Shown here: piece by piece, positions 26,635 to 28,622 of the stretch
Numbering within the stretch: the first letter of the stretch is position 1
Layout: every line of letters begins with the position of its first letter
NCBI GenBank assembly: GCA_965204925.1
Contig: OZ242021.1
Span: 268,000-331,999, forward strand
DNA: 64,000 nt
Source: Candidatus Poriferihabitaceae bacterium
GTDB taxonomy: Bacteria > Pseudomonadota > Gammaproteobacteria > Arenicellales > Poriferihabitantaceae
Reading direction: 5' to 3'
Notes under the pieces: generated by a model
Told to the model about the DNA's origin: nothing
The model's input: only the letters and a program-made list of their open reading frames with translations
The model's database searches: none
Position numbers and translations under genes: made by a program

Positions 26635-27060
26635 CCGCCTGAACCTCCGGAATTAACTCGCGCAGTGACGCATGACAGAGAAAAACAGGCGAGCATACCG
26701 CTTGACGGCCCGGATGATCTGCGGGACAAAGAGGAGGTGTCCACAGAATCCCGGCCATCCCGCATGAACATACAAGGCAATGTCGTCTGTTCAGATAACA
26801 TCGCGTTTATGAGTCGTCTACCCGACTCAATGTTCAAACTGATCGTCACGTCACCACCTTACAACCTCGACAAATCCTACGAGAAAAAATGCGGGCTTGA
26901 TGAATATCTCGCCGCGCAGGAATATGTCATAAGAGAATGTGTGCGATTACTGCAGCAAGGCTCAATTTGCTGGCAGGTCGGCAACTATGCCGAAAAAGGC
27001 GAGATTATCCCTATTGACACGCTCCTCGCTAAACCATGGAAAACGATAACAGGCAACTGA
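26611..27060 (+). pseudogene. Truncated duplicate of the SPPY DNA methyltransferase (first ~140 codons only)
   Basis: 26531-27027 is near-identical to 28731-29242. It includes the TSPPYN motif IV but lacks the motif I region. Homology stops abruptly at gacacgctcctc, where the ATPase-ankyrin cassette begins. Confidence 0.85.
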
Positions 27061-28622
27061 ATGAGGAACAACGCGCGGCGCTTGTCGAATTCACTGAAGA
27101 CAAGGACCGTGGAAAGGCTGCCATCTTTGTGGGTCGAAAAGCCGAACTGGTTCACGTGCAGGCTTGTGTCAACCGACTCCTGAGAAGGCAGGGCAAGGGG
27201 GAAAGCGCTCCCGGTATTGACCTGACTACCGTCATTCAGGGCGCACCCGGCGCAGGCAAGTCAGCCCTTCTGGCAAGAATCAAGGAAGAATGGCCGCCAG
27301 GCGGGGACGGGCCGGCAGTTGCCGTATCTCTGGACCCGGGGGCGCTCAAGCTGCCCATGCCGGATTTCCTGAAAGCGGTCGTGTCCCGGGCGGAGCAGGC
27401 GCCGGGCTTTGGCCGGATTCTGGGCAAGTACATCCGCTCCATATCGGTCAGCATGTCTGGCGTAATCAACCTTGAGATCGGCGCTGCGTCTGCACAGTTT
27501 TCCGGAAAGCCCGTTGCGCCGGTTATTTTACTGTTCGATGAAATACAGACCGAGCTTGCGTTCAGCGCTTCGGCGCAGTCACGGGAACACCTGATCCAGA
27601 ATCTGAGACTGCTCCACACGGGCGAGCACGGAGCTCCGATGTTTCCGGTTTATGGAGGTCTTGCCGACAGCGCCAACCTGTTGCGCTCTGCCGGTCTGAC
27701 GCGGCTTGCCCTGGACTCGGAGTGGACGCTGGCGCGGTTTTGCGATCAGGAGATAGACGAACTGATGATACGGTTCGCAGATGAACATCTGTCATCGGCA
27801 GGGCCGTCACAGGCCATTATTGACCATTGGGGCAAAGTGTTTCACCGCGACAGTCAGGGCTGGCCGATGCATTGCCGCAATTTCCTGATTGCGTTGTGTG
27901 AAGAAATCCGCAAGAAGGACTGGCAACCGGACGCGGTTGACCTGGACACGGTGCGCATGCGCGCACAGCAGTTGCGCTTTATGTATTATGCACAACGGAT
28001 GCAGGGCAATCTGGACGAAAGGTTCGTGCTGGTATCCAGAGTACTGGAGGAGATGCGCCGGAACGCCCCGAACAAACGCGGGCAGATTGTCGAGTGGATT
28101 GCAAAAGCGCATCAGGACAGCCCGGGCGAAGGCTTTGGCTGGGGCTCCCTCCCTCATGGCATGACCGCTGAACAAGCCTTTGATGCGATGCTGCATGCCG
28201 GGATCATACAGAAAACCGGCAAGGGAAAATTCACCTGTCCGGTTCCATCGCTAGCCAGTTATATCGCGGCCAGGGCAACACTGCCGCCGAGCCCGTTGCA
28301 CGAAGCGGTACTGGATAATGAGGCTGCGGATATGGATCATGCGCTTGACCTGTGCGGGGATGACGAAGAGCGGGCGAAACTGCTTCAGGCCGCGGACATG
28401 CGCGGACGCACGCCGTTGATGCTGGCGGTCGAGCTGAGCATGGTGGCGATGGTCGAGTATATGGTGCAAGTAGAGAGTCGGCTGCCTGTGGCGCTGCGGA
28501 CAATGAAGCATAAAGACAACACCGGACGAACCGCGCGGGATTATGCCGTCGCATCGGGTAATGAGCGCATTGCGGCATTGCTGGATCAACTTCGCAATGT
28601 GTCCGGGTCGAGTGTAATATAG
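27036..28622 (+). CDS. P-loop NTPase with C-terminal ankyrin repeats (paralogue 1)
   Basis: The 528-aa ORF has Walker A (VIQGAPGAGKSALL), Walker B (VILLFDEIQ) and two C-terminal ANK-like repeats (GRTPLMLAVELSMVAMVEYMV; TGRTARDYAVASGNERIAALL). Confidence 0.8.
   Translation: MENDNRQLNEEQRAALVEFTEDKDRGKAAIFVGRKAELVHVQACVNRLLRRQGKGESAPGIDLTTVIQGAPGAGKSALLARIKEEWPPGGDGPAVAVSLDPGALKLPMPDFLKAVVSRAEQAPGFGRILGKYIRSISVSMSGVINLEIGAASAQFSGKPVAPVILLFDEIQTELAFSASAQSREHLIQNLRLLHTGEHGAPMFPVYGGLADSANLLRSAGLTRLALDSEWTLARFCDQEIDELMIRFADEHLSSAGPSQAIIDHWGKVFHRDSQGWPMHCRNFLIALCEEIRKKDWQPDAVDLDTVRMRAQQLRFMYYAQRMQGNLDERFVLVSRVLEEMRRNAPNKRGQIVEWIAKAHQDSPGEGFGWGSLPHGMTAEQAFDAMLHAGIIQKTGKGKFTCPVPSLASYIAARATLPPSPLHEAVLDNEAADMDHALDLCGDDEERAKLLQAADMRGRTPLMLAVELSMVAMVEYMVQVESRLPVALRTMKHKDNTGRTARDYAVASGNERIAALLDQLRNVSGSSVI

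Follow-up and report, generated by a model that had tools for sequence, protein, structure and literature searches.

The 64,000-nucleotide stretch of contig OZ242021.1 analysed here (the window; assembly GCA_965204925.1, positions 268,000 to 331,999, from a Candidatus Poriferihabitaceae bacterium) carries two intact genes, c1 and c2, which encode ankyrin-repeat proteins with a nucleoside triphosphatase (NTPase) core (Table 1). Both genes are members of a fast-evolving, multi-copy accessory family that has expanded in the genomes of sponge symbionts, and both stand alone rather than encoding subunits of the restriction-modification (R-M) systems that adjoin them. The protein kind itself is already known; the family is uncatalogued, as are its restricted habitat, its copy number, its design without an effector and its shuffling of modules. 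The relatives are named just 'ATP-binding protein' in the databases, and the family is not described in the literature searched. With regard to function, our preferred reading is a tentative one, held at somewhat less than an even chance, in which c1 and c2 would be autonomous, diversifying sensor ATPases of the NLR/Avs kind.

Protein architecture and predicted fold

The proteins c1 and c2 share 66% amino acid identity across 520 residues (BLASTP) and are encoded on the same strand. A preliminary description of the window, made from the sequence and its open reading frames (ORFs), had recognized them as two full paralogues of about 520 residues with a Walker A motif, a Walker B motif and C-terminal ankyrin-like repeats; both ORFs are present as described, and these features are seen in the translations, in Pfam and in a profile match to the PDB. 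The start of c2 is best placed at ATG 35454, which is favoured by the family consensus, with GTG 35451 as the alternative. The Walker A motif, QGAPGAGKSALL, occupies residues 68-79 (GAPGAGKS at 69-76) and the Walker B motif, VILLFDEIQ, residues 163-171 (ILLFDE at 164-169), and both are invariant in a 46-sequence alignment of the family. In c1, the P-loop is preceded by FVGRKAEL, the family form of which, FVGRxxEL, is likewise invariant; we take this to be the 'hhGRExE' motif common to ORC/Cdc6 and STAND proteins. Further invariant motifs of the family are GLTRL, which contains R223, the GxP motif GWPMH and, within the winged helix, CPIPSL. From their positions in the sequence, the invariant R223 and the residues R271 and R281 on either side of GWPMH are candidates for the arginine finger and sensor 2.

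At the C-terminus, Pfam Ank_2 matched residues 447-516 with 28.1 bits in c1 and 26.0 bits in c2, the cut-off being 27.3, and a profile of the 46 sequences matched designed ankyrin proteins in the PDB over residues 446-520 (E 4e-35). Only about 30 residues precede the NTPase module, and the family's N-terminus is conserved, hydrophilic and free of any stretch resembling a signal peptide. Pfam, PADLOC and NCBIfam revealed no effector domain in c1 or c2, in line with the preliminary description. The NCBIfam matches were confined to the ankyrin or P-loop stretches (MzaA, AnkX, MeaB, QatA) and lay far under their cut-offs. Neither PHROGs nor a viral structure library contained a specific relative of c1 or c2, and there is thus no sign of a phage origin.

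An AlphaFold2 model built on the family alignment (predicted local distance difference test, pLDDT, 85.5; predicted template-modelling score, pTM, 0.85) places an AAA+ base, a lid, a winged helix and two to three ankyrin repeats in that order. In a Foldseek comparison of this model with the PDB, archaeal ORC2/Cdc6 and eukaryotic ORC/Cdc6 subunits ranked at the top over about 410-430 columns (E 1e-7 to 1e-6), the leading entries 1w5t, 1w5s, 1fnn and 2v1u having TM-scores of only about 0.3-0.53 at 12-15% sequence identity. A plant NLR resistosome, TnsC and generic AAA+ proteins ranked next. The class of the NTPase had been left undecided in the preliminary description; judged from the predicted structure, it is an ORC/Cdc6-like or STAND-grade ATPase and not a KAP protein. 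The C-terminal repeat sensor of STAND NTPases has its equivalent in the two to three ankyrin repeats, which are short, and the match to the Pfam model nSTAND_NTPase5 reached only E 0.11, too little for assignment to STAND by that model.

Mosaic evolution of the family

The C-terminal parts of c1 and c2 are far more alike than their N-terminal parts, as the preliminary description had noted. Over residues 1-160 the two proteins are 46% identical, compared with a family mean of 55%, and over residues 281-480 they are about 82% identical, compared with 69% for the next-best paralogue. Synonymous divergence (dS) between them is saturated in the N-terminal part and about 0.55 in the C-terminal tract. 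Over residues 1-280, c1 is nearest to P0002 and P0003, which are paralogues from the window's own genome, and c2 is nearest to P0014. These comparisons show that the C-terminal 200 codons were exchanged between c1 and c2 by recombination.

Other members of the family are built in the same manner, with blocks of 100% identity lying directly against blocks of 45-65%. A tandem pair in a sister genome is identical through residue 286 and has 40-70% nucleotide identity thereafter. An array of five copies contains pairs with full identity across residues 1-320 and divergence across 325-485, and another pair shows the reverse. Paralogues tend to be nearest to others of their own genome, and genomes with 93%-identical IlvD proteins share no NTPase orthologue, the best match being 62-69%. 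The copies belong to one family, mosaic through recombination as proposed, that turns over rapidly and is homogenized and reshuffled by gene conversion.

Windowed Nei-Gojobori ratios of non-synonymous to synonymous substitution (dN/dS) were 0.05-0.46 in every region, which indicates that all modules are under purifying selection. Diversifying selection, which had been considered as a cause of the variation, is not supported, since dN/dS never exceeded 0.5; the data show mosaicism instead. Variation is concentrated in residues 114-127, 143-155, 342-368 and 431-437, and there is next to none in the catalytic motifs.

Copy number and distribution

In a protein search, about 10 paralogues came from the 2.62-Mb contig of the window itself and 8-9 from each of three further contigs; overall, the copy number is roughly 8-10 per contig of 1.6-3.7 Mb. 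Among GTDB representative genomes there are at least 475 relatives, almost all of them in metagenome-assembled genomes of sponge-associated lineages. The matches listed include Arenicellales/Ca. Poriferihabitaceae, Paracoccaceae, Aestuariivita, Albidovulum, Pseudomonadales, Thalassobaculaceae and Limisphaerales and so span Gammaproteobacteria, Alphaproteobacteria and Verrucomicrobiota. By the homologues of its IlvD protein, the window itself is placed near Ca. Spongiihabitans-like Gammaproteobacteria. A profile of residues 1-415 retrieved 2991 clusters (50% identity), 920 of them at E<=1e-30, and C-terminal ankyrin repeats are the sole recurrent fusion in the longer relatives.

One sister-genome locus (L084, positions 1563-13526 and 21466 to its end) holds five, possibly six, NTPase-ankyrin paralogues in an array. 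The array is broken by a gene for a UvrD-like helicase with a topoisomerase zinc ribbon, followed by genes for an ImmA/IrrE-HTH protein, an N6_N4 methylase and an SNF2 helicase, and small ORFs of 33 and 56 residues have been duplicated together with its units. A repetitive extragenic palindrome (REP)-like sequence (CACTCCCCCCTTGAGGGGGG...TCGAAGAAGTCGAGC) recurs in the 3' flanks of several sister-genome paralogues (L080, about 11690-11740; L083, about 11610-11700; L084, about 7890-7920 and 9785-9815). The same motif occurs at a loose end, at about position 30485 of the window, in run X3.

Expression signals

Among 18 close paralogues from five genomes, 14, including c2, start behind the element TTGCG(C/A)-17-18 nt-TAAACT-6 nt-ATG (nt, nucleotides), where no Shine-Dalgarno sequence is present. 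The element scores 8/12, below the threshold of a generic promoter scan, and it may be a private promoter that yields a leaderless mRNA. The gene c1 is without this element, and its start overlaps the end of a truncated methylase ORF. This ORF belongs to a repeat that begins in a leader sequence, here called leader R, and stops 9 nucleotides short of the start codon of c1. Given the missing element and the methylase repeat so close to the ATG, only the promoter-like site of leader R could drive c1, which would then be transcribed from positions 26507-26536 through the frameshifted methylase fragment. Many other copies in the family are single genes placed right after housekeeping genes.

Association with R-M and defence genes

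In the window, every NTPase copy or relic adjoins R-M-type cargo, as the preliminary description had reported. At 65 homologous loci, most of the genes that directly adjoin the homologue (+-1) have housekeeping roles. The families common to two or more of these neighbours include neither a DNA methylase nor a restriction family, and the only mildly recurrent ones are Fic (3) and DDE transposases (2). Contexts of close paralogues were also compared in sister genomes. All seven islands, including that of the window, contain defence-, toxin-antitoxin- or mobile-element-type genes, and these are different each time: a HARE-HTH/DUF6998 cluster with PhdYeFM; Polbeta-Methylase_S-DUF559 with a Type I-like methylase; an integrase with HipA; an insertion sequence (IS) element; a giant adhesin; and UvrD, ImmA, methylase and SNF2 genes.

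Within 3.5 kb of the homologues, PADLOC matched Type ISP/IIG, PARIS AriA, SoFic, AbiLi, Menshen and methylases. Matches to PDLC03597, the Type ISP/IIG model, came from 3 of 117 genes at <=3.5 kb, in three phyla or classes, and from none of 129 genes at >6 kb. However, an obligate operon in which the NTPase gene precedes a Type ISP gene was rejected despite these three loci: the two genes may be divergent, convergent or co-directional, and the nearest Type ISP homologue (77% identity) has no NTPase gene within 10 kb. The NTPase genes co-reside in a flexible, defence-rich part of the genome without an obligate R-M partnership; a specific linkage to R-M genes is thus lacking, yet the surroundings are rich in defence genes. 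The R-M adjacency in the window is a by-product of nested insertion and recombination.

History of the DMGDH-ilvD hot spot

The island that holds c1 and c2 (26372-44372) is a large composite with the DMGDH gene on one side and ilvD on the other. In a sister genome (L085), the corresponding hot spot has a five-gene operon immediately behind the DMGDH gene, with 80% nucleotide identity to positions 37314-44079 of the window, then YafQ/RelB (9270-9753) and ilvD, and no NTPase gene. In a further relative (L086), an N6_N4 methylase/NgoMIV pair and a zeta-toxin-like gene precede ilvD (6489-9772), again with no NTPase gene. The presence of defence cargo without an NTPase gene in both genomes indicates that the hot spot works without it. 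Since the operon in L085 lies directly beside the DMGDH gene, the additional DNA with c1 and c2 is a nested insertion: the sequence comparison indicates that about 10.7 kb (about 26635-37139) entered the leader of the resident five-gene operon and brought c1 and c2 with it.

The insertion comprises a methylase fragment, c1, a methylase/BglII pair, an RTX-repeat fragment, a truncated Type ISP gene, a relic of an NTPase gene and c2. Two copies of leader R, and not NTPase genes, bracket it; within the insertion, a 500-bp direct repeat made up of leader and methylase 5'-end sequence lies on both sides of c1. Such an R-X-R structure is the product expected from Campbell-type integration or unequal crossing-over. 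Through homologous and microhomology-mediated recombination, leader and methylase 5' end came to be present in duplicate around c1, and two further NTPase copies were reduced to relics. Contigs of independent public runs cross the c1 junctions, and thus the arrangement is no assembly artefact. No integrase or transposase domain was found in island ORFs of at least 150 residues. Conserved element ends or att-like sites were considered and dropped, as neither leader R nor the non-coding DNA flanking c1 and c2 was matched at any of 81 other loci.

Chromosomal defence hot spots of Pseudomonas and E. coli likewise carry variable defence cargo, as does the DMGDH/gcpE-ilvD interval in the three related genomes. 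While such hot spots have core genes as flanks, the NTPase gene is here part of the variable content and not a flanking core gene.

Possible functions

As a sensor of the NLR/Avs kind, c1 or c2 would be an ATP-driven, oligomerizing switch with no fused effector. Three hypervariable patches could together make up a surface that recognizes a variable ligand, the likeliest being a protein or DNA component of a phage or mobile element. The first patch would be the insertion between Walker A and Walker B that occupies the place of the initiator-specific motif (residues 114-155); the second, the helix and loop ahead of the winged helix (342-368); and the third, the first ankyrin helices (431-437). 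The 8-10 paralogues would then generate a repertoire of specificities by shuffling their N- and C-terminal modules. STAND, Avs and NACHT proteins have in common with the family the NTPase, helical domain, winged helix and C-terminal repeats, as well as rapid diversification and a defence-rich location. The likeness extends to the sub-threshold Pfam matches to AAA_16 and NACHT and to the plant NLR resistosome among the structural matches. Unlike them, the family has no N-terminal effector, and its sensor consists of two to three ankyrin repeats or is missing; compared with STAND and Avs proteins, its variability peaks within the ATPase module and immediately behind it, and not in a long repeat sensor. 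In evolutionary mode only, the family also resembles the tandem NLR clusters of plants, with which it shares tandem arrays, segmental gene-conversion mosaics and the lack of one-to-one orthologues between close relatives, although the organisms and proteins are unrelated and no positive selection was detected in the family.

Several results weigh against a sensor function. At the N-terminus, the Pfam models AAA_16 (20.3 and 28.7 bits against 32.6) and NACHT (18.0 and 19.6 bits against 26.7) remained below their gathering thresholds. PADLOC-DB 2.0, including its Avs and NLR models, gave no significant model for c1 or c2, and its sub-significant matches covered the ankyrin stretch (E 7e-4 to 4e-3) or, for mad8 and QatA, the P-loop only (E 0.02-0.05). 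Two to three ankyrin repeats are short for a sensor, and the majority of the wider family are 'core-only' proteins of 400-470 residues without any. With neither an effector domain nor a conserved partner gene, the output of the sensor is undefined. The windowed dN/dS analysis gave no sign of positive selection. Further, genes more than 6 kb from the homologues are about as defence-rich as those within 3.5 kb (PADLOC); since both sets are rich and the comparison is without a genome-wide control, an enrichment for defence is not established. An RNA run with the same organism label gave no usable signal.

Among the other explanations, a functional partner or regulator of the adjoining methyltransferase-containing cargo, for example an ATPase that licenses or modulates restriction, had been put forward in the preliminary description. 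It would account for the R-M-type genes beside all copies and relics in the window, for the twofold occurrence of a junction in which the 3' end of an NTPase gene is followed by a 64-nucleotide spacer and a Type ISP start, and for the restriction of PDLC03597 matches to near genes. We nevertheless hold it to be highly unlikely, since the neighbours at the 65 loci have no R-M family in common, the cargo changes in every sister-genome island and is missing beside some copies, the closest Type ISP homologue stands alone, the orientation to Type ISP genes is variable and the NTPase genes have a promoter-like element of their own. Type ISP and BglII-type systems are, in addition, self-sufficient. 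The preliminary description had alternatively suggested that the NTPase gene is a conserved anchor that provides homology for cargo swapping. One part of this suggestion stands: the relics, an inverted 153-bp repeat pair and the exchange tracts demonstrate that the copies recombine, and NTPase copies often bracket variable cargo, so that portable homology is real as a side effect. That the dispersed paralogues matter mainly for this purpose is quite unlikely. Cargo has turned over at the same hot spot in two relatives without an NTPase gene, the brackets in the window are leader R and the methylase 5' end, and many copies are solitary and without cargo; moreover, all copies are intact in frame and catalytic motifs and under purifying selection, which would be needless for a patch of homology.

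A role towards the host, in which the proteins would be 'eukaryotic-like' ankyrin proteins that manipulate the sponge, for example to evade phagocytosis, is unlikely. Ankyrin proteins are enriched in sponge symbionts, and the family shares with them its repeat type and its habitat, being distributed, among the matches listed, almost exclusively in sponge-associated lineages of unrelated phyla. In the present family, however, the ankyrin part is a small, optional appendage on an ATPase and is missing from most members; there is no secretion signal at the N-terminus, an oligomerizing AAA+ core with a winged helix is atypical of secreted effectors, and the genes sit among defence, toxin-antitoxin and IS genes rather than secretion systems. 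The similarity to replication initiators raises the further alternative of a selfish gene, namely an ORC/Cdc6-type initiator or maintenance ATPase of small, self-spreading integrated elements. Orc1/Cdc6 initiators (1w5s/1w5t, 1fnn, 2v1u), which are the nearest structures, share with the family the order of AAA+ base, lid and winged helix, the hhGRxxE motif before the P-loop and the insertion at the initiator-specific motif position, and TnsC was matched too. Orc1/Cdc6 paralogues are also multi-copy in haloarchaea. Consistent with a selfish gene are the multiple copies, the patchy presence, the insertion just behind housekeeping genes and the IS elements or integrase near some loci. Yet the family differs from the initiators in its added C-terminal ankyrin repeats and in being bacterial, and each genome has 8-10 of its genes, which lie in variable islands. 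The NTPase gene is not accompanied by a transposase, an integrase or conserved terminal repeats, the non-coding flanks of c1 and c2 are unmatched at other loci, phage or PHROG relatives are lacking and five-copy tandem arrays are unexpected for an initiator; this alternative is therefore very unlikely. The probability that remains beside these four alternatives and the sensor reading falls to something else.

Other features of the island

The features of the window are given in Table 1. Both relics reported in the preliminary description are real, and self-BLASTN and alignments refined their coordinates to 35393-35430 on the minus strand and 44157-44252. The internal relic is 83% identical to positions 36499-36593 in c2 and 81% identical to 28101-28184 in c1, and it shows that a further NTPase copy once stood before ilvD. 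Close IlvD homologues have 600 residues and an N-terminus 14 residues shorter than that in the window, where the alternative starts are 44373 and 44415; the downstream start is thus probably the true one and the intergenic space around the internal relic longer.

Table 1. Location of c1, c2 and associated features in the window.
Feature	Position	Strand	Remarks
c1, intact gene; predicted ORC/Cdc6-like AAA+ ATPase with winged helix and ankyrin repeats	27036..28622	+	528 aa
c2, intact paralogue of c1	35454..37019	+	521 aa
5' element of c2, TTGCGA-18 nt-TAAACT-6 nt-ATG	35408..35453	+	Promoter-like; no Shine-Dalgarno sequence
Exchange tract in c1 (residues 281-480)	27876..28475	+	c1 and c2 mutually closest; dS ~0.55
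Matching exchange tract in c2	36285..36884	+	
Relic of a third NTPase gene, final 38 nt including stop codon	35393..35430	-	Co-directional with Type ISP gene
3' flank of c1, copy of spacer and first ~50 nt of Type ISP gene	28623..28737	+	Homologous to 35392-35278
Internal NTPase relic, about residues 350-383	44157..44252	+	Between five-gene operon and ilvD
Left 500-bp direct repeat, leader R and 5' third of N6_N4 methylase gene	26530..27027	+	Frameshifted
Right 500-bp direct repeat	28731..29232	+	95% identical; runs on into intact methylase gene
Leader R, left copy	26430..26634	+	Adjoins DMGDH gene
Leader R, native place	37140..37347	+	Before five-gene operon
Type II R-M pair, N6_N4 methylase and BglII-family endonuclease	28873..30410	+	Cargo
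Type ISP/IIG-like enzyme (Mrr nuclease, helicase, methylase)	31948..35328	-	Cargo; 1126 aa
RTX nonapeptide-repeat ORF	30595..31518	-	Pfam E 1e-33; follows Type ISP gene on same strand
Resident five-gene operon	37333..44077	+	Uncharacterized; uncharacterized; ParA-like + ORC-CDC6-like; CARF-like; N6 methylase

Positions 28585-28737 and 35430-35278 form an inverted pair that is 84% identical over 153 nucleotides (self-BLASTN and alignment). Inside 35278-35430, only 35393-35430 is NTPase coding sequence, the remainder being intergenic spacer and the 5' end of the Type ISP gene. The junction between the flank of c1 and the direct repeat falls at a TATGAC microhomology with the leader repeat. The inverted repeats flank a 6.5-kb segment with the methylase/BglII pair and the Type ISP gene, and an inversion between them would put an intact Type ISP gene straight behind c1; no such alternative orientation was seen in the contigs examined.

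In the left copy of leader R, the promoter-like site is joined by a ribosome-binding site and by an ATG with coding sequence for 'MPYL'; this copy is 85% identical to the native one over the core (26502-26634 and 37220-37347). Leader R sequence also heads the BglII-type methylase (28745-28835). Its presence before the five-gene operon, the BglII-type methylase and the truncated methylase duplicate indicates that cargo repeatedly landed behind this promoter, a pattern reminiscent, by analogy, of promoter capture. The Type ISP protein is short compared with full-length homologues of about 1470-1490 residues and thus lacks its C-terminal target-recognition part, a domain probably lost to an inserted repeat fragment. 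The DNA of the RTX repeats reaches a depth of more than 2000x in metagenome runs, compared with about 20-50x nearby.

The five-gene operon has a lower GC (guanine plus cytosine) content, 48%, and its proteins are 66-81% identical to those of the sister-genome copy (L085, 2479-9201). The third protein, of 937 residues, combines a ParA-like part with the ORC-CDC6-like PF24389 (PADLOC PDC-M28B), and the operon looks like an uncharacterized, methylase-containing defence system in its own right. Positions 1-16700 of the window, about 10 kb from the island, are chromosomal core context: they contain rpoC/rpoB (by ORF size and position), which open the window, and clustered genes for tRNA-Tyr, -Gly, -Thr and -Trp. 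The entire region shows synteny with L086.

Implications

For the window itself, the present analysis corrects the earlier interpretation, in that the R-M association is no evidence for a new R-M accessory protein. If the family does function in immunity or conflict as a sensor, a large, habitat-specific defence family is missing from PADLOC, Pfam and NCBIfam. Its design would also be unusual, as it would combine an ORC-like core with no effector and obtain its diversity by module shuffling between paralogues. A more far-reaching proposal, which we regard as doubtful, is that sponge symbionts of several phyla carry a combinatorially diversified repertoire of effector-less, ORC-like immune receptors, with at least 8-10 paralogues per genome that keep shuffling, by gene conversion, an N-terminal ATPase module, whose variable insertion would contact DNA or a ligand, and a C-terminal winged-helix/ankyrin module, as a prokaryotic counterpart of NLR clusters. 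Instead of relying on a fused toxin, such receptors might engage invading DNA themselves, by ORC-like binding. Whatever the function, 8-10 copies in genomes of 2-4 Mb represent a large investment, and a sensor function would help to explain how sponge symbionts with small genomes cope with dense viral exposure.

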